Source: Elusimicrobiota bacterium
GTDB lineage: Bacteria; Elusimicrobiota; Elusimicrobia; UBA1565
Direction: 5' to 3'
Length of the DNA stretch: 64,000 nucleotides
NCBI GenBank assembly: GCA_003450735.1
Contig: DMEZ01000037.1
Coordinates: 2,263 to 66,262 of the forward strand
Shown here: piece by piece, positions 2,926 through 17,566 of the stretch
Layout of the letters: each line of letters opens with the position of its first letter
Numbering within the stretch: the stretch's first letter is position 1
The notes under the pieces: generated by a model
Told to the model about the DNA's origin: nothing
Databases searched by the model: none
Seen by the model: only the letters and a program-made list of their open reading frames with translations
Position numbers and translations under genes: made by a program

Positions 2926-3930
2926 TTATGAAACCCGGCCGACGTGCCGACCACGCAGTCTCCGCTGTTCAACTACTGCCTCGCGAATAACTGCCCAGCC
3001 ATTACGGGCTCTGGTCGCGGCAAGAACAAGCTCGGCAATTTGCTCTCTCCCATCCTCAGGCTTGGGAAAGGAGGTGCCGTCTTTGACAAATCGCTCGGCG
3101 AAGGCTAGACGCACCTTGCGATCTGGCCTCTTGAGGACATTGGAGTAGGCCTCGCAGACGAAAGCGAACAGCTCACGAGAATCAAAGCGGACATCCAGAA
3201 ATCTCTCTTGACCCCGTCTGACAGTCAATCCGAAGTTCTCGGGCTTGAGATAGTGAAGAAGATGCGCGGCCTCATGGATCACGACATCGCAGTAAGGATC
3301 AGCTTTCTTCTGCGCGGAAGGCTTCACATGCGCAAAGGCCCCAGCAGACAATCCATCCATCCCGAGCTTGAGTCCTCTTGGAGCCAAGCCGTAGTCATGG
3401 AAGTAGAGCCAGAGCACCTGCCAGGCTTCGCCTATCCACGTCGTGGACATCTCCGCTTCCATCGCGGCCAAAGTCGTTTCATGGTTCAGGACGAAGACTC
3501 GGAGCCCGAGCTCGCGCAGGGCAACCTCTCTCCAGTCGGGCTGTATGAGACCATCGACCATTGGCCGGACCAAATTCTGAACACCGTCGGCCGTGACCGT
3601 GGGCACTCGCCTGGCCTCGGGAGGAAGATATCTGGCCAAGAGACAAAACAGATGCCTGAGAGCGGCGTATTTGCGCTTCTTTCGTTCTTGAGCGTTACGC
3701 ATCCATTCCAGAATGTTTCCTTCGGGAACAGAATCCTCTGAAGCCTTCTCCCCTGTGCGGAGGAAAGCTTTTATGGCCCTTGCTTCCCGCTGATTGCCGG
3801 GAGAGGCATGTCCTGCCGCCTCTGCGATGCAGGAATCAACGATCTGCCGAGGTGTTTTCCGGGAACTGGACATCGATGAAGAATACCAAAATGGGGACAT
3901 CTCGAGCCCTGGGGAGGAAACGCGTCGCAT
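2926..3930 (-). CDS. Putative zinc metallopeptidase (HExxH; HEAAHLLH, ImmA/IrrE-like spacing). Start uncertain.
   Basis: 334-aa ORF containing VVIHEAAHLLHYL. No clear RBS at any of the candidate starts (3930, 3900, 3873). Confidence 0.5.
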   Translation of the reverse strand: MRRVSSPGLEMSPFWYSSSMSSSRKTPRQIVDSCIAEAAGHASPGNQREARAIKAFLRTGEKASEDSVPEGNILEWMRNAQERKKRKYAALRHLFCLLARYLPPEARRVPTVTADGVQNLVRPMVDGLIQPDWREVALRELGLRVFVLNHETTLAAMEAEMSTTWIGEAWQVLWLYFHDYGLAPRGLKLGMDGLSAGAFAHVKPSAQKKADPYCDVVIHEAAHLLHYLKPENFGLTVRRGQERFLDVRFDSRELFAFVCEAYSNVLKRPDRKVRLAFAERFVKDGTSFPKPEDGREQIAELVLAATRARNGWAVIREAVVEQRRLRGRHVGRVS

Positions 3931-3986
3931 AACAGTGGTGGCAAGTATACGATCTAAACTGCGAGCTGCCTTGCAGATACAAGGTG

Positions 3987-4547
3987 TTACTTGTAGTCAA
4001 TATGCCAATAGCAGCTTTCGACACCTTTCCCTGTTCGAGTATAGACGTATGATTTGTCATTCTTGAACTCGACAGTCAGCAGCCCGTTATCCAGTTTCAT
4101 TTGCCCGCCATTGAGCGCTTCCGGCGAGATTGAGAATGATTCGGAAAGCCGAGTCTTGGCTAATTCAATGGCATCTTCCAGCTTCAATTCTCCCAATTCT
4201 TTAGCAGGCTCTGGACAATATCTGTCTACAAGGCGTCGTATCTGAATTACTAAAAGCACTCCGAGAAGATGCATGGTTGCGTTAATGGCGGGATCATGGA
4301 GAATAATGTTGATGAGGCCACTTTCTGCACTCGCCCCATGTTCAAAGCGACTCTTTGTGACTGAAGACTCCCAACCATCTCCTTTTTCCTTGCAGATTAT
4401 GTCTTCAACCTCACGAGCTAGATTATAGAAGTCTGACACATCTGGAATGTCGTATACAAAAATCTGATAGTTGCCCACACATTCCGGTTTTGTACCGGCA
4501 TAATTCCAGTTTTCTAGTTGTGTAATTGAAATCTTAATTCTATCCAT
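3987..4547 (-). CDS. Hypothetical protein
   Basis: 186-aa ORF with AGGAGA RBS 6 nt upstream of the ATG. Confidence 0.55.
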   Translation of the reverse strand: MDRIKISITQLENWNYAGTKPECVGNYQIFVYDIPDVSDFYNLAREVEDIICKEKGDGWESSVTKSRFEHGASAESGLINIILHDPAINATMHLLGVLLVIQIRRLVDRYCPEPAKELGELKLEDAIELAKTRLSESFSISPEALNGGQMKLDNGLLTVEFKNDKSYVYTRTGKGVESCYWHIDYK

Positions 4548-4623
4548 AGGATCTCCTGATTGATTAACTGAATGGCGTTCTAAGTGCTGACAGAAATAGG
4601 CTCGTAAATGCTGGACAAACGAT

Positions 4624-4836
4624 TTAGATAACTCCTGCTTTGAGCATGGCCCATAAAGCTATAACCCCGAGCAGCACTAGGAGCAGCCACATCCACAGTT
4701 TCCGCGGCGCTGGCGCCGAGTCAATCTTGCCAGCCTCGGGCGTGCCACGCCGACGCCTTTCGATCTCGAGAAAGGCTTGCCGCTTAAAGTCCGGCTCATC
4801 GCGTTGCATAGTCGCCGACAAATATATTCGATCCAA
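4624..4836 (-). CDS. Small protein with C-terminal transmembrane helix
   Basis: 70-aa ORF ending LWMWLLLVLLGVIALWAMLKAGVI. No RBS. Confidence 0.3.
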   Translation of the reverse strand: MDRIYLSATMQRDEPDFKRQAFLEIERRRRGTPEAGKIDSAPAPRKLWMWLLLVLLGVIALWAMLKAGVI

Positions 4837-5127
4837 GCGCTTCAGTGATTCTGATTTGAAGTAAGGCTCTGTCCAGGCGTCGGTGGCATCGAGAGGGGCC
4901 GGCGCTTTGCTTGTGCCGGTGCTGGCGCAGTAGCGAAACCGAGAAGGCCTGGGTGCCTATTATCGCCAATGTTCATCGCCAACAGAATGCCGGTCGATCC
5001 AGCATAGCCTTTCACACGCACGCCGTTGTTCTCTATGAGTTTTCTCATGAAATTGCTTGCTCCCTAAAGTAGGCCTATCGGAACTTCAAAGAGTCTCTGC
5101 TTAAGACTACATCATGTCCGTCTCATT

Positions 5128-5313
5128 CTATTTATTGCCATGCTGGCCGTCCCACTTCTCTTTAGCTACCTTCTCTGCTTCTTCAGCAGTGCGCCCCCTT
5201 CCCTCGACCTTGTGTTCACCATCAGAGATAGTCGCCTTGTAGTGGTGGTCGCCTAAGAGACGCTCCACAAGAAAGCTATCCTTCTCCGTCCTCGATTTCT
5301 TTTCAGTATCCAT
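5128..5313 (-). CDS. Small hydrophilic protein (61 aa)
   Basis: GGAGGG RBS upstream of the internal ATG (MDTEKKSRTEKDSFLVERLLGDHHYK...). The longer 135-aa ORF call overlaps the divergent gene. Confidence 0.4.
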   Translation of the reverse strand: MDTEKKSRTEKDSFLVERLLGDHHYKATISDGEHKVEGRGRTAEEAEKVAKEKWDGQHGNK

Positions 5314-5567
5314 GAGCATCCCTCCGTCTGACCTTAGGACATGAGTATAATACCACAACGGCGTCGGTTGTCGAGTTGTCAGCATCGGCCTGAAGGAGTC
5401 CTCGTCGCCGAAGTGCTCCCGGCCATGGTCCCGTGTGGTACAATCACCTAAGGCTTGATGGACAACGCCGACGTTCAGGATTTGTGTGCCGAGGGCATTC
5501 ACATCAGGTTGGCGTTGGAGGAGTTCGGGGAACATCTTATAGTTCCAGCGGAGTGGAGGAGGTTATA

Positions 5568-5990
5568 ATGGCAGACCCTAGATTCGAAGAAATTCAGACA
5601 ATCCAACAACTCACGAAAGCACTTTCAGTAGAAGACACTGTTTGGCTGCTAATTCTCGGAGATGGGCCCTGGCGGGAAGATGTATTGAATAAGGCGAAGG
5701 AGCAAGTCACCGACCAGCCACAATTCATGGCGCTCTGGCTGAAAGACATCAGCATATTGACCTCTGAGCAACTGAAGCATTTCATTGGCGATAATGTAGG
5801 AGCGGTTGCCTGTGGCATAGCAAAGAATGGCGGCATGGCAGAGGAACGGCTTGATGCAGCCACAGCCAAAAAGGGTGCTCGGCTCGGCCGGCTTCTTCAT
5901 CAAGCAGAATCCTACAAAGGACATGGATTCTGCCTTATCCATGGGGACTTTGATGGGAATAAATGCCAAAAGTGTATTCCCAATGCGTAA
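5568..5990 (+). CDS. Hypothetical protein, C-terminal Cys motif CLIHGDFDGNKCQKC
   Basis: GGAGG RBS before ATG 5568 (MADPRFEEIQ...). First gene of a six-gene same-strand run. Confidence 0.5.
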   Translation: MADPRFEEIQTIQQLTKALSVEDTVWLLILGDGPWREDVLNKAKEQVTDQPQFMALWLKDISILTSEQLKHFIGDNVGAVACGIAKNGGMAEERLDAATAKKGARLGRLLHQAESYKGHGFCLIHGDFDGNKCQKCIPNA

Positions 5991-8061
5991 CCCAACCCAA
6001 TATACAAACAGCACCCGGTTGCTTCCGTCAATTCTTGTGTTTTTGATTGCATCCCTCGCATCGCCTACTCATGGTGCTTCCCGGGTAGGCAATAACATCC
6101 CTCTGGGACAGGGCATTGCATTCACGGAATTCGACGACGGGAACAAGCCCCGTGATTTGGTCAATGCTGCTGATGTTTACGAAGCTGATGTGAATAGCAC
6201 TCTTCTTATCAAGCTTGATGCGCTTGCGATTGCCGCCTCGCTACCCCAGAGTGAAGCTGTAAGAGCTCCAACTCCGCCGACTCCTCCGGAGACGGTCCAG
6301 AAACGAGAGCAACTGTTTCGTTCACTCAGCACCCTCAACGATTATCTTTCAATTTGTCGCAGAATTGCCGTCTTGTTTGAAAACCGTTCGACAGGCACCG
6401 CAATCCCAGGGCTACCCGAGCTCATGTCTCAGCACGGGACAGCATATATCCGATTGCAGGATGATCTTCTGGCATATCTGACAGTTAGTCAACAAGACTC
6501 CAAACAGGGGAAGAGCGCTGTCGACGTGCGCGACGAGCTATTTGAGGGGCCGCTTAAGGTGTGGAGCAGCAAGGTCCAATCGTTTCTGCAAGAGGAGATT
6601 CAACGATTGGACCAGGAATCAGCACGGCGGTTGGCTGAGATAAAAGCCAACGCAAACCCCTTTTCACTTCAGCTTAGCGCAGAATTGGTTAGGAAAGGTG
6701 AGCGCATTAAACGGATTCATTTGCCTGGCTATGACAGCCACGAAGAGGGAGAGTACAAGCCAATCGACAAGATTTCCTTTTCTATGCCGGATGAAGAAAA
6801 GAAGAAGCTTCAGTCTGAGATGGACTTCAATCGCGAAATCGCATCGCGACTAAATGAAACACGGGATCTTAGAAAGAGCCTCCTTGAGGCGTTGTCTCGC
6901 ATTTCAGAGACGGCGATTTCCAGAGCGCGAACATTCTGTCAGGAGACGAGGAATACCTCGAATGAAATCCAAGCCCTCGTCACCTCAAGCATAATTGAGG
7001 AACGCGCTCAGGGATATGAGTTGCTTGAAGGCGAGGCAAAACCGGTCGTAGACGGCCAGCTGAAGGAATTTCAGCGAATTATTAGTTCGAATGTTGATGC
7101 GGTTCGGACATTTCAAACCACTATTGAACAGCGGCTGCCCACTGCGACAAAATTAGCTTCTCTTCAAGAGGCCAATGACCCTATAGATGTCCTGGATCAA
7201 TTTCTGAAGCTTACGACCGAAGTGCCTTCTACCCTGAACTCTGCCTATAATGAACTTCAGCAGCAGTCAGAAGTCATTCGCAGTTCCTTCACGAACTTTG
7301 GGCGGAGTCTGGAAAGCAGTATTAAATCCTTATCGGGCGCCGCTCGAACAGCAGTTGATATTGAAAAGGCGCGCCGTGAGAAGCTACTGCAAGATATTAG
7401 GAGCAAGCTTGAGGTCTATAAAGCCTCTCAAGTTGATCCCTTTGTGGATTTTCTAGAGGGACTCAAGAGAAATGCTGACAAGCTACGATCCAGCGCCGTT
7501 CCAACATTAGCGTTGAGCAAGGGTTTAGACCCTTCTCTGATCGACGAGAAGACAATAATAAGGGCATTTGGATCCATAATAGACACAAAGATCAGCATAC
7601 CGCGGAGCGGCAGAATAGAAGGCGACCAGATTGAGCTACATATTGTCGCTCGGCAGAGCGGCCCGGCATTCGAGCCTATCCAGAAAGCACCAATTCTTGG
7701 TGAGCGTGTCCCCACATTTACTTTAAAGAAGTTCGGAGCTTATAGCGAATTCTCCACAGGTGCGGCTGCTTTCTTCAATACAGTCAACTCAAACAAAACT
7801 GAGTTCGGTGCACTCACAACATGGGTACTTCATAAACGTTCACGAACCAGTTCAGCCTGGAATATTGTCAACACTGGCATAGGTATGCACGCGGCAGGCA
7901 TTTCCAGTGGACTCGGAATAGGAGCCTCACTGCATCTATTCCCGGGGAACTTCTTCCAGGCTGGTGGGGGCCGTACCATGCGGTCTACAGGCGATAATCA
8001 ATGGTATTGGTTCGTTGGCCTACGCCTAGCAAACTTCAAGATGCCAACAATGAGCAATTGA
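5983..8061 (+). CDS. Large secreted coiled-coil protein (692 aa) with N-terminal signal peptide
   Basis: ATG 5983 overlaps the stop of the previous gene. MRNPTQYTNSTRLLPSILVFLIASLASPTHGAS is signal-peptide-like. Long E/K/Q/L-rich helical regions. Gly-rich C-terminus. Confidence 0.6.
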   Translation: MRNPTQYTNSTRLLPSILVFLIASLASPTHGASRVGNNIPLGQGIAFTEFDDGNKPRDLVNAADVYEADVNSTLLIKLDALAIAASLPQSEAVRAPTPPTPPETVQKREQLFRSLSTLNDYLSICRRIAVLFENRSTGTAIPGLPELMSQHGTAYIRLQDDLLAYLTVSQQDSKQGKSAVDVRDELFEGPLKVWSSKVQSFLQEEIQRLDQESARRLAEIKANANPFSLQLSAELVRKGERIKRIHLPGYDSHEEGEYKPIDKISFSMPDEEKKKLQSEMDFNREIASRLNETRDLRKSLLEALSRISETAISRARTFCQETRNTSNEIQALVTSSIIEERAQGYELLEGEAKPVVDGQLKEFQRIISSNVDAVRTFQTTIEQRLPTATKLASLQEANDPIDVLDQFLKLTTEVPSTLNSAYNELQQQSEVIRSSFTNFGRSLESSIKSLSGAARTAVDIEKARREKLLQDIRSKLEVYKASQVDPFVDFLEGLKRNADKLRSSAVPTLALSKGLDPSLIDEKTIIRAFGSIIDTKISIPRSGRIEGDQIELHIVARQSGPAFEPIQKAPILGERVPTFTLKKFGAYSEFSTGAAAFFNTVNSNKTEFGALTTWVLHKRSRTSSAWNIVNTGIGMHAAGISSGLGIGASLHLFPGNFFQAGGGRTMRSTGDNQWYWFVGLRLANFKMPTMSN

Positions 8062-9511: not shown

Positions 9512-9949
9512 ATGGCAGACATTCAGGTTTCTTCGATACCAAATCTTGATATCTGGAAGCAAAAGCCGCAAGTGGTTAAGGATGCCGAACTAGACGCGGC
9601 TTTTGAAATTGTTTGGCGGGATTGCTTGACTGAGTATCGTGAGGCGGAGTTGTCGAGGGTACATATCCTGTTGACTGAGATGAATCGGCGATCAGCTAGA
9701 CAGAACTACCGTTTATCTATCGGCATAGCCATACTTGCCCTGACTGTTGCGTTACTATCTTTTGGGGTTGGGATATCCATTAGAGGGGGGAATGCTAGAT
9801 TCAACAAGCAGGTTATTGAATCTTTGAATGAAGGGAATGAAGCCATTAGAGATTTGACATCTAAATTCCAACAACTCCTGGATGCTAATACCACGAGACC
9901 CCAACCGTCGATCGAGTTAAAGAAAGTCAACAAACACAACCGCGGATGA
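9512..9949 (+). CDS. Hypothetical membrane protein with one transmembrane helix
   Basis: 145-aa ORF with hydrophobic segment LSIGIAILALTVALLSFGVGI. Confidence 0.45.
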   Translation: MADIQVSSIPNLDIWKQKPQVVKDAELDAAFEIVWRDCLTEYREAELSRVHILLTEMNRRSARQNYRLSIGIAILALTVALLSFGVGISIRGGNARFNKQVIESLNEGNEAIRDLTSKFQQLLDANTTRPQPSIELKKVNKHNRG

Positions 9950-10124
9950 TTATCCCCATGTTCTTCAGGCACATTGGCATCGACTACTCCGGCGCCGAGG
10001 CATCGACAAGCCGGCTGAATGGGTTTCCGGATTTCCTTGTCTCACCGACCGAGGGACATTCAGCCATTGCCGCGGCGACCAGTCTCAATGAAGGGATACC
10101 CAGCAAGTTGCCGAAGACCCATAT

Positions 10125-11402
10125 ATGACCACTATAGAATTGAAGCTTGTTCATGATGTTGAGTCTACCTATCACGCTCCCTATCGCGGAGCAGTTATCG
10201 GTGAGCCCATTAGTCACCTCCTAGTTGAAGCAGTCGAAGCAGCTCGTAATAAGGACATATACAGAGCGAAAGCAGATTTTAAGGCAACGTTCAAACTGGT
10301 CAAAGACGCTCGCGATACGGAATGGGTTGTAAATCGGATATTTAATAGCGCCAAGCTTTTTATCTTAGACGGTAATCACCTTGCTGCGTTGGACATGTTC
10401 GAATTGGCCCAAAAGGCTTTAAGAAGAATGGCTGTAGGTTTGGGTGACGAGAGAGCCCGGATGGTGATGGGAATCCGTTGTTGCTGCGCTATTACTAGAG
10501 GAATTCATCAGTGGGTCATCGGCGACTATAAGTCGGCGGAAAAGGCTTTTTCGTCGGCACGCGAACTCGTGGGAGTGAAGAGGGAGAATCTCGAGGATTT
10601 GGCGTTCTTCTTCAATAAGCAATTCACCCTCTTCTGGGTTGACCGTGAAATCGCGCGCTTACCTACGCTAAGTGGGCTTGCCAGGGCTACCCGACTTCTT
10701 TGGGAGGTTTCGTCACCCATCGAGAGAGAAGCCGCTACTGAATTGAAGGCCAATAGGCTCACGCACAAAGATTGGATTATAGATTTGGCAAATCTGCGGA
10801 ATGGGCTCACTGCCCTGCGCTCTCTTGTGGAAGGCTATCCTTTTGAAAAGGATTGTCTGGCTGGGATCGAGCCGATCTTTGCTCGTAATGGGATTCGCCG
10901 TCGCATATCCATCTTTACATGCATTGCTGAGAAATTGTGTGTTTTGCGTGCCCTTCGGCGCATTTGCAAATCTCCTGAGGGCATCCCTATTGAGCGCCAG
11001 CGTGCATGGCTTAGAAGCCTTGGGATGCCACGGAAGAGAAATACGGCGCCACAAGGAGGACATGATGAGGATGTGACGTTTGCTGGGATGTTGACATCCA
11101 AGCAGAAGGCATCCGCCGCGGGGCCGGACCCAGTAGCAATTTTGCGGGGCAGGGGGCTGGGCCTAAAATCGATCGACGTTGCCAGAGAACTCCTGCGTCA
11201 TGTCGAGCAGAAGGCAATTCCAGGCAGGATTGAAATTTCGTGGGACAACTTCAAGTACCATCGCCAAAGGCTTTATGGTCACTTTGGAGTTCACTCGCGA
11301 GATGCTCTGCGGAGGATATTGTCGGGTCTGCCCAACATGTCAGTCGACACATTCCTTCGACAAGGCCCGCGCGCTTTCGCCAAGAAGTCTGCTGGCTCAT
11401 AG
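10125..11402 (+). CDS. Hypothetical protein (425 aa, helical)
   Basis: Long ORF in the low-GC island with protein-like composition. Confidence 0.5.
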   Translation: MTTIELKLVHDVESTYHAPYRGAVIGEPISHLLVEAVEAARNKDIYRAKADFKATFKLVKDARDTEWVVNRIFNSAKLFILDGNHLAALDMFELAQKALRRMAVGLGDERARMVMGIRCCCAITRGIHQWVIGDYKSAEKAFSSARELVGVKRENLEDLAFFFNKQFTLFWVDREIARLPTLSGLARATRLLWEVSSPIEREAATELKANRLTHKDWIIDLANLRNGLTALRSLVEGYPFEKDCLAGIEPIFARNGIRRRISIFTCIAEKLCVLRALRRICKSPEGIPIERQRAWLRSLGMPRKRNTAPQGGHDEDVTFAGMLTSKQKASAAGPDPVAILRGRGLGLKSIDVARELLRHVEQKAIPGRIEISWDNFKYHRQRLYGHFGVHSRDALRRILSGLPNMSVDTFLRQGPRAFAKKSAGS

Positions 11403-12169: not shown

Positions 12170-12328
12170 ATGGCCAAGATGATCACCCAGACTCAAGCCA
12201 TCGTGAAGTGCCTCAGGCTCGATCTGCTCACAGCGGCCAAGTTGCTCGGTGCTCTGTTGGAGCCGGAAAAGGCTGAGCTTGCTCGGTTCTGCGCCAGAAG
12301 GCTAGGCAAGAAGCTGATGCCTTACTAA
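12170..12328 (+). CDS. Small ORF (52 aa, MAKMITQTQAIVKCLRLDLL...)
   Basis: AGGAGG RBS 6 nt upstream of ATG 12170. Under 60 aa, so absent from the ORF track. Confidence 0.3.
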   Translation: MAKMITQTQAIVKCLRLDLLTAAKLLGALLEPEKAELARFCARRLGKKLMPY

Positions 12329-12383
12329 AGGGAAGGGGATGGAAGTAGTTTGGTTCAAACCACAAATGTGATGGGGCTAAATC

Positions 12384-12830
12384 ATGGAAGACAACAAGAC
12401 GCCGGAGACAAACAGCAAGAAGTCCCTGGAAGAACGCGCAGATGAAATTGCCGGTGTCACCGAACAGATAATCGACCGTGTGGAAGTGCGAGCCGGAATG
12501 CGGGAACTTCACAAGGCAATCATCGAAGCGCTCACAAGAGTCGCAGAGGAGCACGGGTTCACTTACCTCCCGAGTAGACTCCGGTTTGACGAAATCTCGG
12601 CTTCCGGACGCATGGCCTTCGTCGTCAAGGGAAGGGAATCCGAGTTGGCAGCCCGCACCACCGGCGCTAGCAGTTGCGGACTGAAGGTCGGTGACGTGGT
12701 CATTGGGAGGGGGCGGACCGCCGTTCGATACCGAGTGGCTGGGTTCGCCCGTGTCAATGTCAGGCTTGAACGCCTCAGCGACGGGGAGAAGTTCCTGGCG
12801 AAGCCCCGGGCACTTGAGAAAGTCGGATGA
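12384..12830 (+). CDS. Hypothetical protein
   Basis: 148-aa ORF with natural composition. The competing antisense 248-aa ORF is low-complexity junk. Confidence 0.5.
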   Translation: MEDNKTPETNSKKSLEERADEIAGVTEQIIDRVEVRAGMRELHKAIIEALTRVAEEHGFTYLPSRLRFDEISASGRMAFVVKGRESELAARTTGASSCGLKVGDVVIGRGRTAVRYRVAGFARVNVRLERLSDGEKFLAKPRALEKVG

Positions 12831-12893
12831 GAGTAGCGTGCCCGTTGCCGGAGACGATGATGCAAGAAACAAGTTGTCATAAAGGAGGAGACC

Positions 12894-13199
12894 ATGATGT
12901 ACATAACGCTGGCCCAGATCGTAAGCACCATTCCGCGCGTACGGCCGCACGGTGAGAGGCCGGATCACAACCACTGTGAACTATGCAATCAAGGCTGCGG
13001 TAGCAGAGGGCAGTGCCCCTACTGCGGCCGAGAGGCAGGAGAGCATTGCTGGAACAGACTGTGGGGGTGCTGTAAGGCGTGTGGCAATGTCATCGATTAC
13101 TACTTGAAGCCGTCGGTGTCGTTCGGTGCCAGCCCGAACTCTCAGATGCCTCCGCTATCCATGCCCGTTGATGATTGGACTTCCATTTTCAGGCGGTAG
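12894..13199 (+). CDS. Cys-rich zinc-ribbon-like protein (about 12 Cys in 101 aa; CELCNQGC...CPYCG...CCKACG)
   Basis: AAAGGAGGAG RBS. Its stop abuts the ATG of the ATPase gene at 13200. Confidence 0.5.
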   Translation: MMYITLAQIVSTIPRVRPHGERPDHNHCELCNQGCGSRGQCPYCGREAGEHCWNRLWGCCKACGNVIDYYLKPSVSFGASPNSQMPPLSMPVDDWTSIFRR

Positions 13200-14498
13200 A
13201 TGATTATGGAAATCAACCAGTCAGACAGATCCCCTACACCAATGGAGCTGCCTGCGACCACTCCTTTCGCCCCAGCAATCCCTCCAGGAATCCAGGGGCA
13301 ATCAATGCCACGGCCAATCATCTGCGATGAGCGGAGGTTTCAGGAAGCCCTCAAAACTCTGAAGCGAAACAATCTTTTGGTATATCCGGCCATCCAACAC
13401 CTGATAGCCGTCTTAGGCGAGAATCCGTTGGATCCGCAAGCCAATCAGTTCCTTGCATTGATTCTGGCTCGAATCAGAATGCAAGAGGAGCAGTTTGGCA
13501 TTAATCCGTTTGGTGACCCGCCACCGCCGGGCGCTCTCGCCGGCGAATTCTCTCTGGGCTGTTCTTCGCCCGATGCCCCATTGTGCAGGCACGGGCTTCT
13601 CCTGCCTGAGTTGGCACAGAACATCATCATTGCAGGCATCCAAGGAGCTGGGAAGTCGAACCTCCTTCACAACATCGTGCTGCATAATCTCGAAAACCCT
13701 CAAATCCGCTTCACGATAATGACAAAGAAGCCTGATGAGCGCGGTCTGATTAAAATGACGAGGCAGCCGATTATCGTCGTTACAAAAACAGATCCCATTA
13801 ACCATCTTGACGGCATGGGCCTTCCGCAAGACCGCCATGCCCTTACAACCGCAATGGATTTCACTTTCTCAAACAGGATTTGGCTCGGCCCTGAGGCAGT
13901 CCTATCTGAGGTTATTCAGCGTTTGAGTGAGAAGATCGGAGCCCCGCCAACATGGTCGGAAGTCAGGGGATACATCAAGGCAATGCGGAAGAGTGACCGG
14001 GCCATGATGGCGTATCTTGCTTCGCTTGAGATCAAGATCGGATTGCTCATTCGAGCGATGAGAGAATCCGTTAACTGCAGGAGAGGCCTAGACTTAAGGT
14101 CAACAATAGGTTTTCACCGCATCATAGAGCTACCGCTTGATTGGCCGGCTGAAGTCCGCAGGTTCCATGTCCAGCATATTCTGTCCTGGGAATTTCATTT
14201 CCGCCGGGCATGGTTTGCCACCCTGACAGAGGAAGAGATTCAAAAGGTCCCATTCGCTGTCTTCGTCATAGACGATGGACATGAGTATTTCTGCGAAGAG
14301 ATGCAGCAGACAAGGCGTGAGAGTCTGCCGCCGTTTTATGAGCTTTTTACCGGTGCTAGGGCCTACAAGATGGCCTTCATCATCGCTACGCACACCCCAG
14401 AGGGGTTATCAAAGGTTTTATGGGGATGCCACGGGACAACGCTTAGCCTGCGTCTAGTAAACCAGCTCGGACGAAATCGTGTTGCCGAGGTGCTTTGA
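13200..14498 (+). CDS. FtsK/HerA-superfamily P-loop ATPase
   Basis: Walker A IIIAGIQGAGKSNLLHNIV resembles the FtsK pattern hhAGxTGSGKS. Walker B-like AVFVIDDGHEY. ATHTPE resembles the FtsK/HerA ATQ motif. Confidence 0.7.
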   Translation: MIMEINQSDRSPTPMELPATTPFAPAIPPGIQGQSMPRPIICDERRFQEALKTLKRNNLLVYPAIQHLIAVLGENPLDPQANQFLALILARIRMQEEQFGINPFGDPPPPGALAGEFSLGCSSPDAPLCRHGLLLPELAQNIIIAGIQGAGKSNLLHNIVLHNLENPQIRFTIMTKKPDERGLIKMTRQPIIVVTKTDPINHLDGMGLPQDRHALTTAMDFTFSNRIWLGPEAVLSEVIQRLSEKIGAPPTWSEVRGYIKAMRKSDRAMMAYLASLEIKIGLLIRAMRESVNCRRGLDLRSTIGFHRIIELPLDWPAEVRRFHVQHILSWEFHFRRAWFATLTEEEIQKVPFAVFVIDDGHEYFCEEMQQTRRESLPPFYELFTGARAYKMAFIIATHTPEGLSKVLWGCHGTTLSLRLVNQLGRNRVAEVL

Positions 14499-15301
14499 TG
14501 AAGAACGAGCAGATCGATGATTTGTTGAAACGACTGCCTCCGGGGGCGGCCGTGCTTTCGCATCCCCGATGGCCAAGGCCCATCCCGGTTGTTAACTCTC
14601 TGATTGATATGCCGAAGGTGACCGATGATGAGTTGCAGACTTACATGAAGCCGTTTTGGGATCACTTTAAGCCCGAACTCGCTCTGCCTGTCGAGAAGCC
14701 TGCTGAAGATTCCATGTCGACGGAACTGAGGCAGTTGATGATGGAAATCGCAAATCATCCTGGCAGATCGTCAACGGAGTATTACAAATCACTTCAGTGG
14801 CCTGCTTCGAAAGGTAACAGGGCAAAGGGCCAATCGGAGTCCTTACAGCTAATCAAATGCCACCCAATCAAACTGGTGCGTCGCGGAGGATCAGTCGAAG
14901 CGATAGAGCTGTTGCCTCTAGCATATGAAAAGCTTGGCCTGACTCCGGCAAAGCACCAGGGGAAAGGCGGTTTCGTCCATCGCTGGTGGGTTGCCCGCCT
15001 GATGCAGCACCTTGCTTCCATGAAACCTGTCATCGAGTTCGAGCTGAACGGAAAGGCCGTTGATTTGGGTGTTGAAACAGCCGATGGCTGGCTAGCATTC
15101 GAGGTGCAGCTCGATTGCAAAGAAGCATTGGTTCGGGACCTTTTGACAAAGGATATCTACGCAGGTTTCTTTGGCGTCTTTCTTCTTGTTCAGACAAAAG
15201 ACGAAGTCGAGCAGGTTAAGAAGATCATAACGGACATGGGATTCGAAGGCGGAGCGGATGTGAAACTTCTGACCGGGATCTACAACAAAGAGGAGGAGTG
15301 A
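14495..15301 (+). CDS. Protein with C-terminal restriction-endonuclease-like (Mrr-cat-type PD-(D/E)xK) fold
   Basis: ATGA start overlaps the ATPase stop. VDLGVETADGWLAFEVQLD...FLLVQTKDE fits a D...E...QxK catalytic arrangement. Confidence 0.55.
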   Translation: MMKNEQIDDLLKRLPPGAAVLSHPRWPRPIPVVNSLIDMPKVTDDELQTYMKPFWDHFKPELALPVEKPAEDSMSTELRQLMMEIANHPGRSSTEYYKSLQWPASKGNRAKGQSESLQLIKCHPIKLVRRGGSVEAIELLPLAYEKLGLTPAKHQGKGGFVHRWWVARLMQHLASMKPVIEFELNGKAVDLGVETADGWLAFEVQLDCKEALVRDLLTKDIYAGFFGVFLLVQTKDEVEQVKKIITDMGFEGGADVKLLTGIYNKEEE

Positions 15302-15302
15302 G

Positions 15303-15488
15303 ATGATGATAACCAAAGAGAAACTGCAGGTGATCAAAGTTCACGTCGAGGGGGAGGAGTATTCTCAGACTCGCTACATCTACTCCAAGGACGGAGTCGA
15401 TGTCATGGGTGTCCTCGAGAAGGCCTTTCCGTCGACGGGCGGACAGAAAACGCGAGGCAGGAAGGCTCGGAAGTCTGTCGAGAAATAA
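15303..15488 (+). CDS. Small basic protein (61 aa)
   Basis: GGAGGAG RBS. Starts 1 nt after the preceding stop. C-terminal KTRGRKARK. Confidence 0.45.
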   Translation: MMITKEKLQVIKVHVEGEEYSQTRYIYSKDGVDVMGVLEKAFPSTGGQKTRGRKARKSVEK

Positions 15489-15555
15489 ACCCGGCCTCAT
15501 GCCGACGGTCCCATTCCTCCGGGAGTGGGACTAGGGGATGCGGTTGGAGGCAACT

Positions 15556-15768
15556 ATGACTAAGAAACTCATAACAGTAGATGAACTCTCGATTTACCTC
15601 AGCCTGCCGAAAGCCACCATCTACACCTGGGTCTGCCTCAAGAGAATCCCTGGCGTGGTGAAGCTCGGGAGAGCCGTTCGCTTCGACCTGGCAGCCATCG
15701 ACCGCTGGATAGCCGAGAATGGGGCCTCACAGGAAGACCCCTACGAACCGAAGAAATCCGCTCGCTAG
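15556..15768 (+). CDS. xis: AlpA-like excisionase / helix-turn-helix DNA-binding protein
   Basis: MTKKLITVDELSIYLSLPKATIYTWVCLKRIPGVVKLGRAVRFDLAAIDRWI. GGAGG RBS 5 nt upstream of ATG 15556. The ORF track starts at an upstream ATG 15538. Confidence 0.75.
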   Translation: MTKKLITVDELSIYLSLPKATIYTWVCLKRIPGVVKLGRAVRFDLAAIDRWIAENGASQEDPYEPKKSAR

Positions 15769-15813: not shown

Positions 15814-16854
15814 ATGGGAAACATCCGACTAAGAAACAAAATCTGGTGGATCGACTACCGCCACGACGGCCGTCGCATCCGTGAGAGCGTCGGCCCCTCC
15901 AAGTCCCTTGCCCAGAAAGTTCTAGCCAAGCGCGAGACCGAGATTGCAGAGGGCAGGTTCTTTCCCCAAAAGCGCTCTTCCCTGCCCATGACCTTCAGCC
16001 AGATGGCCGAGAAGTGGTGGCAGCTTCATGGCAAGCATTTGCAGTCCAGATCAACCAGGTATCTCGTTGACAAACTGCTGTCCGTGCTCGGCGACAAGCG
16101 CCTGCACGAAATCCAAGTCGATGATTTGCAGCGGTACTACAACCTGCGCTGCGAGGACAGCAGCCCTTCGACAGCCAATAAATACCTAGCCCTCATCTCC
16201 GAGATATACAGTGCCGGCGAACGATGGAACGATTTCAATGGCAGGAATCCCACAAGGGGGGTGAGAAAGCAGCGTTGCGAGAACCCTCCTGAGCGGTTCC
16301 TAACCGAGTCCGAAGTCCGGGCCCTCCTGTCTGCCTGCCACTCTCGGATATTCCCAATCGTCGCCTGCGCGCTCATGACAGGCATGCGGAGGGGCGAAAT
16401 CCTCGGAATGCGCTGGGAGCACATAGACCTCGAGCGCAACCTAATCTATATCCTCAGATCCAAATCCGGCAAGAGGCGGGAGATTCCCCTGGCCCCCAAA
16501 CTCAAGGATCTCCTGCTATCGCTTGGGCCCTGCCTTACAGGGCCGGTCTTTAGCGTGCCCGTGATCACCCTCAGGAGGTACTTTAAAAGGGCCCTGAAGG
16601 CCTCTGGGATCGCCGTATGCCGCTTCCATGACCTCAGGCATACCTTCGCTTCCCACTTCCTCATGCGTACGGGCAACTTCCCTACCCTCCAGCGCGTCCT
16701 GGGCCACGCCTCTCCCCGGATGACTCAGCGCTACGCGCACCTGGCTCAGGACTACATGCAGAACGAGATGCTTCGCTTTGACCAGGCCCTACAGATAGGG
16801 CTGGAGCTTGATGCCGATGGTCACAAAATGGTCACAAACCAGGTTTCGGCGTGA
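15814..16854 (+). CDS. int: Tyrosine site-specific integrase (phage-type)
   Basis: C-terminal catalytic region HDLRHTFASHFLMRTGNFPTLQRVLGHASPRMTQRYAHL carries the R...HxxR...Y signature. N-terminal SAM-like domain. Confidence 0.9.
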   Translation: MGNIRLRNKIWWIDYRHDGRRIRESVGPSKSLAQKVLAKRETEIAEGRFFPQKRSSLPMTFSQMAEKWWQLHGKHLQSRSTRYLVDKLLSVLGDKRLHEIQVDDLQRYYNLRCEDSSPSTANKYLALISEIYSAGERWNDFNGRNPTRGVRKQRCENPPERFLTESEVRALLSACHSRIFPIVACALMTGMRRGEILGMRWEHIDLERNLIYILRSKSGKRREIPLAPKLKDLLLSLGPCLTGPVFSVPVITLRRYFKRALKASGIAVCRFHDLRHTFASHFLMRTGNFPTLQRVLGHASPRMTQRYAHLAQDYMQNEMLRFDQALQIGLELDADGHKMVTNQVSA

Positions 16855-16893: not shown

Positions 16894-16966
<73 letters not shown>

Positions 16967-17037
16967 CCCTCTCGAAAGTCCCGCCCCGCAACGGCGGGAT
17001 TTTCATTTACGCCGGCATGGTACAATGTCTTCATCCG

Positions 17038-17277
17038 ATGAGCCCGACGGTATTCCGGTACCGGAAATACAGGTTCTATTTCTTCTCCCGAGAGGAAACG
17101 CGTGTGCATGTCCACGTAACCTGCCCCGACGGAGAGGCGAAATTCTGGATCGAGCCGGGTATCTCTTTGGCGCAGAACTACGGCTTATCCCAAAGGCAAG
17201 TCAAAACGCTGATGCGAGTGGTCGAGGAGCACAAGGATGAAATCACGAGCGCGTGGCGCGAACACTTCAGCCGCTGA
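17038..17277 (+). CDS. DUF4160 domain protein
   Basis: MSPTVFRYRKYRFYFFSREETRVHVHV...EAKFWIEP. The ORF track starts at an upstream GTG 16888 that overlaps the tRNA, so a start at ATG 17038 was chosen. Confidence 0.6.
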   Translation: MSPTVFRYRKYRFYFFSREETRVHVHVTCPDGEAKFWIEPGISLAQNYGLSQRQVKTLMRVVEEHKDEITSAWREHFSR

Positions 17278-17566
17278 AGTCCAGGGCATCACCGCCCAAG
17301 GCATCTGGATCTACGTCCAAGGCAGCGAGTATTTCCTGAATCATCAGGACTACCCTTGGTTCAAAGGCGTGAGCGTCGAATCGATATTCAACATGGTTTT
17401 GCTGCACGGCCATCACCTGCATTGGCCGGATCTGGACGTCGATCTGGAGTTGGAATCCTTGAGGAGCCCAGAGAAGTATCCCTTGAAGTCCGCGGTGCTC
17501 CACGCAGCCGTGGCAGAGAAGCCCCGGGCTTACCGAAAGGGCCGCAGCCGACCAGTCCGCGCCTGA
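17237..17566 (+). CDS. DUF2442 domain protein
   Basis: GIWIYVQGSEYFLNHQDYPWFKGVSVESIFNMVLL...HWPDLDVDL. Classic DUF4160/DUF2442 gene pair. Confidence 0.6.
   Translation: MKSRARGANTSAAEVQGITAQGIWIYVQGSEYFLNHQDYPWFKGVSVESIFNMVLLHGHHLHWPDLDVDLELESLRSPEKYPLKSAVLHAAVAEKPRAYRKGRSRPVRA

Follow-up and report, generated by a model that had tools for sequence, protein, structure and literature searches.

What does a block of four tightly packed genes do at the edge of an integrated genomic island, and is it cargo or part of the machinery of the element that carries it? The question is raised by a 64,000-nucleotide stretch of an Elusimicrobiota bacterium (GenBank assembly GCA_003450735.1, contig DMEZ01000037.1, positions 2,263 to 66,262 of the forward strand), the whole of which is referred to here as the window. 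At the right end of an island of low guanine-plus-cytosine (GC) content (about 0.50 over window positions 1 to about 16.9 kb, against about 0.69 for the host) are four open reading frames (ORFs) on the same strand, encoding a Cys-rich zinc-finger protein, an ATPase, a protein with winged-helix and nuclease-like domains (ORF3) and a small basic protein (ORF4); then follow an excisionase-type helix–turn–helix (HTH) gene, a tyrosine integrase gene and tRNA-Ala(GGC). Translational coupling links the four genes into an operon on this low-GC integrated island, and profile comparisons identify the ATPase and ORF3 as two halves of one HerA-clade protein. We give roughly an even chance to the reading that the cassette belongs to the backbone of integrative elements and handles their DNA, most probably as a DNA-transfer pump like TdtA of the Thermus element ICEth1.

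The four ORFs and their junctions are placed as in an earlier reading of the letters alone (the sequence-only reading), which had described their tight packing. The zinc-finger and ATPase genes abut at 13199/13200, ORF3 and ORF4 are spaced by one base, and the ATPase and ORF3 genes share one base within the sequence TGATG, the stop codon occupying 14496-14498 and the start codon 14498-14500. That reading had recognized this last overlap but placed it on an ATGA at 14495; the triplet at 14495 is a TTG in the frame of ORF3, and the start is the ATG at 14498. It had also given every gene a strong ribosome-binding site (RBS), which holds for the zinc finger, ORF3 and ORF4 but not for the ATPase, whose site is weak (Table 1) and whose start is placed by public gene callers at the ATG at 13206, giving 430 amino acids (aa). 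Kept in seven loci, namely the window, its relatives L001-L004 and L008, and L029, which is more distant (L numbers denote loci of relatives and P numbers proteins), is the ATPase/ORF3 stop/start overlap, together with a GAGGT Shine–Dalgarno sequence made by the last ATPase codons. The conserved overlap would hold the two products at a 1:1 ratio.

Close relatives were sought with word-indexed searches, also with a profile, and distant relatives with an exhaustive profile search. A search space of 5.8 billion proteins yielded the ATPase in only five lineages, and ORF3 likewise in five, at 47-57% identity; this split family is rare, with no relatives found in GTDB genomes and one short fragment in a search of JGI metagenomes. 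The gene order zinc finger, ATPase, ORF3 is the same in every contig of those lineages, and because the trio recurs in order in four other lineages at this identity with its overlap conserved, the genes are not a product of chance. Of the gene quartet for which the sequence-only reading proposed a search in other genomes, the trio is co-localized, and ORF4 is present in some lineages only.

The exhaustive search with a profile of the ATPase alignment returned 202 representative proteins at an expectation value (E) of ≤ 1e-3, mostly 640-750 aa long, and in most of them the ATPase match occupies the first ~400 residues. A hidden Markov model of ORF3 matches the C-terminal ~270 residues in about 80 of the top 150 (P0011, 7.5e-69; P0032, 7.9e-32). 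These fused homologues comprise, in order, a HerA-clade ATPase, a winged helix of MarR type and a domain of probable PD-(D/E)xK fold that resembles Hjc. Aligned to the fused family with hhalign, the ATPase takes up columns 17-392 (probability 99.9, E of 5e-34) and ORF3 columns 402-691 (probability 99.9, E of 5.8e-34).

The position of the split is itself informative. Sulfolobus HerA (PDB 4d2i) aligns with the fused profile across the split point and into the equivalent of ORF3 residues ~10-35, with the HerA segment LSSLDVGEAIIIGKI-VKLPAVVKI aligned to the stretch that in the window is ORF3 LLKRLPPGAAVLSHPRWPRPIPVV. The first polypeptide (13200-14498) contains the nucleotide-binding core, ORF3 residues 1-40 complete the HerA ATPase domain, and the split point lies inside the HerA homology region. 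Since ORF3 holds the last strands of the ATPase domain, the two polypeptides would have to assemble, a need that fits the conserved translational coupling of their genes. The sequence-only reading had proposed two partner proteins in the style of HerA-NurA; the alignments and the fused homologues point instead to one protein split in two. The closest relative beyond the five lineages is fused (P0011), and the more distant P0012/L029 is split, so that splitting or re-fusion has occurred more than once.

The ATPase belongs, as judged from its relatives, to the HerA clade of the FtsK/HerA superfamily and not to FtsK proper. Compared directly with Pfam, the window protein gives only FtsK_SpoIIIE (E of 0.06; 13.2 bits, where the cut-off is 24), DUF87 remaining unmatched; its profile against the PDB is also weak (E of 0.086). 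Fused relatives pass DUF87 (PF01935, the HerA central domain) at 45.8 and 51.2 bits against a cut-off of 23.2, and the fused-family profile matches HerA 4d2i (1.8e-27), the DUF87 protein 8yho (9.4e-27), Sir2-HerA (8j4u, 1.6e-22) and DptH (7es4, 4.9e-20), with weaker matches to VirB4 (1.7e-10), FtsK (~2e-8) and STIV B204 (1.4e-4). It is because the fused relatives pass DUF87, and their profile matches HerA far above FtsK, that the superfamily call made earlier can be narrowed to HerA. A TrwB/VirD4-type coupling protein paired with a MOBC-type REase-like relaxase, after CloDF13 MobB/MobC, was considered as an attractive idea: TrwB_AAD_bind is narrowly passed by some fused relatives (22-23.5 bits, cut-off 20.5), which score higher on DUF87. 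Among PADLOC models, the window ATPase matches mad8 (4.6e-6) and HerA (9.5e-6) weakly. MADS was considered as a candidate system and rejected, since its mad8 match reflects a similarity general to HerA-like ATPases and no other gene of that system is present.

The Walker A (GAGKS), Walker B (VIDD, residues 355-359) and ATHTPE motifs named by the sequence-only reading are all present and invariant among the orthologues (five for the Walker motifs). Two conserved replacements distinguish the split clade from its fused relatives: an Asp (D359) follows the Walker B Asp where the fused relatives have the catalytic Glu, and a His (H398) stands in place of the sensor Gln. Together these changes suggest altered ATPase kinetics. 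The alignment to HerA begins after the HAS barrel, the N terminus of the ATPase being predicted as helical instead, and no membrane helix was found in the window ATPase. AlphaFold2 models computed from 5-sequence alignments reached a pLDDT score (predicted local distance difference test) of 48 for both ATPase and ORF3, and are unreliable.

Following the strands that complete the ATPase domain, ORF3 contains a MarR-like winged helix (PDB 5eri, E of 4e-5) and a C-terminal domain that probably adopts an Hjc/AHJR-like PD-(D/E)xK fold, of uncertain nuclease activity. Invariant in 29-30 diverse sequences are H161, D189 and E202, with E180 near-invariant in the same set. The profile of the C-terminal region gives weak matches in the PDB, of which three of eight are PD-(D/E)xK proteins (Hjc 1gef, 0.15; Cas4, 0.38; AF1548, 0.83), and the Hjc alignment pairs D189 with the catalytic D33 and E202 with E46. 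In per-member Pfam scans the recurring or significant nuclease families, although weak, are all of the restriction-endonuclease (REase) fold (MTES_1575, MmcB-like at 8.7e-4, CoiA_nuc and AHJR-like), and the predicted order of secondary structure fits an alpha-beta-beta-beta-alpha-beta core in the pLDDT 48 model. A Foldseek search of that model against the PDB gave nothing at E ≤ 0.001 and unrelated folds only. The support for a nuclease fold, all of it from sequence, is weak but consistent.

The nuclease-like motif lacks the canonical Lys (Q204 in the window protein). It reads D189 ... E202-V-Q204-L-D-C-K208, that is, QxxxK and not the QxK given by the sequence-only reading, whose REase-like assignment otherwise stands as the most likely fold. 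Q204 and K208 are not conserved in the wider family, where the position of the canonical Lys is occupied by Q, A or E, and a conserved K-D pair is found in the next helix. The more specific proposal of an Mrr-cat-like domain fails, as neither ORF3 nor 30 family members match Mrr_cat at E ≤ 1.

Directly upstream of the ATPase gene is the zinc-finger protein, a binuclear finger probably of the Prok-RING_2 type with a Pro-rich tail. The window protein falls below the Pfam cut-off for Prok-RING_2 (PF14445; E of 0.026, 15.1 bits against 22.4), as does the L003 orthologue (13.5 bits), but the L001 orthologue passes it (25.3 bits) and the Cys pattern is kept in five orthologues, in agreement with the initial description of the first protein as a zinc finger. 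In L001-L004, L008 and L028 an orthologue immediately precedes the ATPase, and analogous Cys-rich proteins lie upstream of the fused gene in L010, L013, L017, L020, L022-L024 and L029-L034. In nearly all loci with readable upstream sequence these follow the pattern CxxC...CxxC...C...C/H...CxxC, sometimes with a winged helix of their own. The RING-like zinc-finger protein is an obligate-looking partner of the ATPase in both bacteria and archaea. A membrane protein of 65-140 aa often stands beside the Cys-rich gene in the relatives.

ORF4 has a β-rich N terminus and an R/K-rich tail, and matches nothing in the family libraries. Clear homologues occur in L029 (10606-10839, E of 7e-8) and L030 (5632-5856, E of 1e-8) and none in the closest lineages L001-L004 and L008, which marks it as a real but accessory gene; where present, it always lies towards the recombinase. 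L029 (8549-10587) and L030 (3527-5604) encode, in the interval from ORF3 to their ORF4 homologue, a membrane protein of ~105 aa and a multi-pass membrane protein of ~580 aa, the latter with a von Willebrand factor A (vWA)-like VVVCDRSSS motif in its C-terminal part.

The position of the cassette bears on its function. A tyrosine or serine recombinase is encoded within 10 kb in 12 loci (the window, L001, L002, L028, L029, L010, L013, L015, L017, L018, L033 and L034); in the window, L001, L002, L028, L018 and L034 it adjoins the cassette or is separated from it by no more than one or two small genes. The recombinase class varies: the window, L001 and L028 have a tyrosine enzyme, L002 and L029 a serine one. 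In the window the excisionase gene (xis) starts 49 nucleotides (nt) past ORF4 on the same strand and is separated from the integrase gene (int) by 45 nt; the stretch from ORF4 to xis showed no terminator-like site. In L001 and L028 orthologues of xis come after the cassette, and orthologues of the integrase are present. tRNA genes are found at the element ends of L002, L010 and L017. What varies is the remainder of the elements, with DUF87 plus a DinG-like helicase, PIN_4 plus EMARD_N, and Orc/Cdc6 found in one element each. Because the cassette stays beside the recombinase while the rest of the island varies, we regard it as backbone rather than cargo; the 'defence cargo' inferred by the sequence-only reading from the position on an island is not the best reading.

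Table 1. Coordinates of the cassette, its domains and motifs, and other features of the island, as window positions.
Feature	Position	Strand	Details
Cys-rich zinc-finger protein, 101 aa	12894..13199	+	strong RBS AAAGGAGGAG
ATPase (N-terminal half of split protein), 432 aa	13200..14498	+	weak RBS GGCGG
ORF3 (C-terminal half of split protein), 267 aa from ATG 14498	14498..15301	+	strong RBS GAGGTG
ORF4, small basic protein, 61 aa	15303..15488	+	strong RBS GAGGAGGAG
Excisionase-type HTH protein	15538..15768	+	Pfam HTH_17 1.9e-10, Phage_AlpA 1.8e-4
Tyrosine integrase	15814..16854	+	Pfam Phage_integrase 6.7e-29, Int_N 3.7e-11
tRNA-Ala(GGC)	16894..16968	+	ARAGORN; adjoins integrase, near right edge of low-GC island
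744-aa protein, no family assignment	5827..8061	+	hydrophobic N terminus, long coiled coil, β-rich C terminus
ATPase Walker A	13644-13658		residues 149-153
ATPase Walker B, D358 D359	14271-14276		
ATPase H398	14391-14393		
ORF3 MarR-like winged helix	~14720-14947		residues ~75-150
ORF3 Hjc-like PD-(D/E)xK-fold domain (probable)	~14960-15283		residues ~155-262
ORF3 H161	14978-14980		
ORF3 D189	15062-15064		
ORF3 E202	15101-15103		

The fused family extends this setting across both domains. GTDB genomes supplied 16 genomic loci of it, spread over Victivallales, Opitutales, Clostridia, Latescibacterota, Methanomassiliicoccales, Nanohaloarchaea, Nitrososphaerota, Archaeoglobus and DPANN archaea, and seven further metagenomic contexts were read as well. 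Archaeal fused relatives are those of L015, L016, L019 and L021-L024, and archaeal-type neighbours (Orc/Cdc6, Zn-ribbon integrases) surround the gene in L033 and L034.

How such a module might work is illustrated by its closest tested precedent, ICEth1 of Thermus thermophilus, a 14.9-kb low-GC element with an integrase in a tRNA gene of a genome of ~68% GC, whose operon combines nucleases with the HerA-family hexamer TdtA, the latter being required to donate DNA ('transjugation') (PMC5365140). TdtA is a membrane-located hexamer with a pore sized for double-stranded DNA, and pushes DNA from the donor (PMC5365140). Like ICEth1, the window holds a small low-GC island at a tRNA gene, with an integrase and an operon joining a HerA-family ATPase with a nuclease-like domain. 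The two differ in that TdtA is a separate protein beside a NurA-like nuclease and a type IIG restriction enzyme, whereas here the nuclease-like domain, of probable Hjc-like REase fold, is within the same split polypeptide as a winged helix; a RING-like zinc-finger partner is present here, and a methylase is not.

On the reading that the cassette is a DNA-transfer pump, the operon would be co-transcribed into xis-int and the cassette would act after the element has excised. The winged helix may recognize a site or structure on the element's DNA, which the nuclease-like domain would cut, nick or hold, and the HerA ring would then pump double-stranded DNA, probably at the membrane, into another cell without a type IV secretion system. 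The membrane partners would place the motor at the envelope, and the zinc finger would be an adaptor or regulator. Translocation or mobilization of double-stranded DNA, named by the sequence-only reading as its second option, is the one that we prefer.

Other DNA motors resemble the cassette in part. TraB of actinomycete elements and FtsK are likewise ring DNA translocases with a winged helix that reads specific sites, but they are FtsK-clade proteins (matched at E ~2e-8 only) with membrane segments of their own and no nuclease-like domain. Cell-to-cell passage of double-stranded element DNA by TraB needs no type IV secretion system (PMC5365140). The archaeal arCOG00280 HerA-like helicase, annotated as a possible DNA-pumping ATPase, is among the commonest genes of integrase-bearing archaeal 'dark matter' islands (PMC4158269), settings similar to those of the archaeal fused relatives; the likeness is one of setting and of a HerA-like ATPase, and the winged-helix/REase extension, the zinc-finger partner and the bacterial split versions are not described for it (PMC4158269). 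Archaeal HerA with NurA follows the same logic of motor plus nuclease, and among sequences of known structure HerA (4d2i) matches the fused family best, over the region that begins past the HAS barrel and ends with the C-terminal hairpin, but the family has no aligned HAS-barrel region, carries extra winged-helix and REase-like domains and resides on mobile elements, not in a repair operon. Family scans of the neighbouring genes gave no match to NurA, Mre11 or Rad50.

Several observations weigh against a transfer pump. None of 72,556 plasmid records holds the complete architecture, an odd result if the function is transfer; with tblastn, plasmid and phage sequences matched over the ATPase domain only, at ~25% identity to generic DUF87 proteins, including those of Sulfolobus conjugative plasmids (E ~1e-6). 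No membrane protein stands beside the cassette in the window's own lineage. The Asp and His replacements in the ATPase and the lack of a canonical Lys in ORF3 mean that ATPase or nuclease activity could be reduced or lost, and the structural models of the two proteins reach a pLDDT of only ~48. The likeness to TdtA is one of context and architecture, and HerA proteins of defence systems (Sir2-HerA, DptH/DndH and mad8) are among those that the ATPase matches best in sequence. Finally, fused relatives in Victivallales and Opitutales adjoin genes of the TerY-P triad, a known defence module.

These last points lead to the most serious alternative, anti-phage or anti-plasmid defence or exclusion, in which a HerA hexamer would serve as scaffold and activator for its own nuclease domain on invading DNA, in the manner of Sir2-HerA, DUF4297-HerA and DndH/DptH, with the zinc finger as sensor or regulator; we consider it possible but on the whole doubtful. 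All of 40 fused relatives match PADLOC mad8 (best 3.4e-27), HerA and DndH, and the PDB matches listed above include Sir2-HerA and DptH; the window proteins themselves reach no PADLOC system, three of the four matching nothing, as the sequence-only reading anticipated when it found no recognized system that fits. Combinations of HerA/FtsK, REase and winged HTH (wHTH) proteins in mobile neighbourhoods with Xis-type HTH proteins and recombinases have been described computationally and predicted as 'HerA/FtsK capture' defence systems (PMC10853773), which the present cassette resembles. Its domain order, zinc-finger and membrane partners and gene split are nevertheless not among the described versions, and it lacks Sir2, DUF4297, DndFG, Orc/Cdc6 and the MADS methylase, kinase and specificity genes.

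The genomic neighbours also bear on this reading. A TerY-P triad, an M48 peptidase and an HSP70-like protein are encoded beside the gene in Victivallales and Opitutales loci, both of the PVC group, and a defence function is possible for TerY-P modules (PMC11090510); L017, L020 and L033 have ThiF/E1-like genes close to the RING-like finger; and the rare, patchy distribution of the family is also in keeping with a defence role. The plausible defence genes (DUF87 with the DinG-like helicase, PIN_4 and EMARD_N) are, however, in the variable part of the elements, whereas the cassette is conserved by the recombinase and oriented for co-transcription with xis-int. Small membrane partners are atypical for cytosolic HerA defence complexes, and the lack of the canonical Lys in the nuclease-like domain also counts against defence.

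Maintenance of the element is an unlikely explanation. Here the motor and a junction- or site-binding domain would aid integration or excision, dimer resolution, segregation or replication of the excised circle, with FtsK activating XerCD, and branch-migration motors working with Hjc, as models. The cassette stands beside xis-int or a serine recombinase in most close relatives, a motor with a winged helix is the architecture of FtsK, and an Hjc-like domain without the catalytic Lys could bind branched DNA without cutting it. The occurrence of both tyrosine and serine recombinases, which proceed through different intermediates, makes a specific protein or junction coupling unlikely, and no HerA-family ATPase is known as a replicative helicase. 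L034 has its own Orc/Cdc6, so that replication is covered there by another gene, and the membrane partners of the relatives suggest a place at the envelope.

A cryptic provirus of a membrane-containing or pleomorphic virus, with the ATPase as packaging enzyme and the winged helix and nuclease as terminase-like parts, is very improbable: FtsK/HerA-type packaging ATPases are viral hallmarks, STIV B204 gives a weak profile match, arCOG00280 is annotated as a possible viral DNA-pumping ATPase (PMC4158269) and the elements have in common a large secreted protein with a coiled coil, but no relative of the split or fused family was confirmed in 2.9 million IMG/VR viral contigs, just two phage records, both unannotated, matched, and over the ATPase domain only, no capsid or other PHROG match was found for the genes tested, and viral packaging ATPases of the superfamily, at ~210-250 aa, match far more weakly than cellular HerA.

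The large coiled-coil protein is the 744-aa product encoded upstream of the cassette (Table 1). Protein families built with BLASTP across the loci place its homologues in L002 (425-2455), L003 (1-837) and L028 (2-301), the last a partial ORF that matches the C terminus of the L002 homologue. It is a second backbone gene conserved among the related elements, and its product could be an envelope component. Elsewhere in the island, a 60-aa ORF (9946-10128) matches solely the N terminus of a 264-aa L003 protein (6644-7438) and is probably a truncated remnant. A 248-aa ORF on the minus strand (12228-12974) was rejected as most likely spurious; it overlaps a 148-aa gene and the start of the zinc-finger gene, and has no homologue or family match.

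The left end of the island is outside the window. At its right end the tRNA-Ala(GGC) has its 5′ end towards the integrase, and the tRNAs of L002, L010 and L017 have their 3′ end towards the element; no att repeat of the tRNA was found inside the window. A DUF4160/DUF2442 gene pair follows the tRNA (16894-17566 for tRNA and pair together), and since this pair is present and GC content is still 0.57-0.60 up to ~17.6 kb, the right border of the island may lie beyond the tRNA. Repeats and promoter or terminator signals around the operon showed nothing notable beyond chance.

A DinG-like helicase (DEAD/Helicase_C_2) is common to L001 (1431-5490) and L029 (444-2543), at 61% identity; in L001 it pairs with a separate 677-aa DUF87 ATPase in what looks like a defence-type cargo pair. 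Linked to the fused gene in Victivallales and Opitutales are a 640-700-aa M48-peptidase-like protein and a wHTH protein. The M48 and TerY-P neighbours are at 12100-18143 in L010, 12067-18995 in L011, and 3281-6252 and 13011-15251 in L013; L010 and L011 hold the complete TerY-P triad (vWA, PP2C phosphatase and Ser/Thr kinase-FHA), and L013 a vWA gene and an HSP70-like gene. In L010 these genes are inside an island ending in an integrase and tRNA-Glu. The ThiF/E1-like genes near the RING-like finger (L017 7589-9124, L020 11099-11914 and L033 4048-4995) hint at a link to ubiquitin-like conjugation.

HerA-family motor and nuclease modules on mobile elements are a kind already known, and the cassette is a variant of them; the literature searched gave no description of its architecture, its zinc-finger and membrane partners or its split form. 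The split through the ATPase domain would offer a clean natural case of a ring motor made from two translationally coupled polypeptides. A role in defence would make the cassette a HerA-nuclease system of a new type, with the RING-like finger as sensor. As a marker, it flags integrase-bearing islands in Victivallales, Opitutales, Clostridia, Latescibacterota, groundwater lineages, Archaeoglobus, Methanomassiliicoccales, Nitrososphaerota and DPANN.

Most genomic islands have an integrase but no recognizable route of exit from the cell. If the cassette does pump element DNA, it would provide a simple cross-domain transfer route related to Thermus transjugation. More speculatively, and with less than even confidence, the RING-like finger, the small membrane protein and the HerA-winged helix-nuclease protein may together form a self-contained machine by which archaeal and bacterial integrative elements export double-stranded DNA, after recognition of a site on it and cutting, with neither a relaxase nor a type IV secretion system; such a machine, if real, would explain the spread of many 'non-mobilizable' genomic islands.

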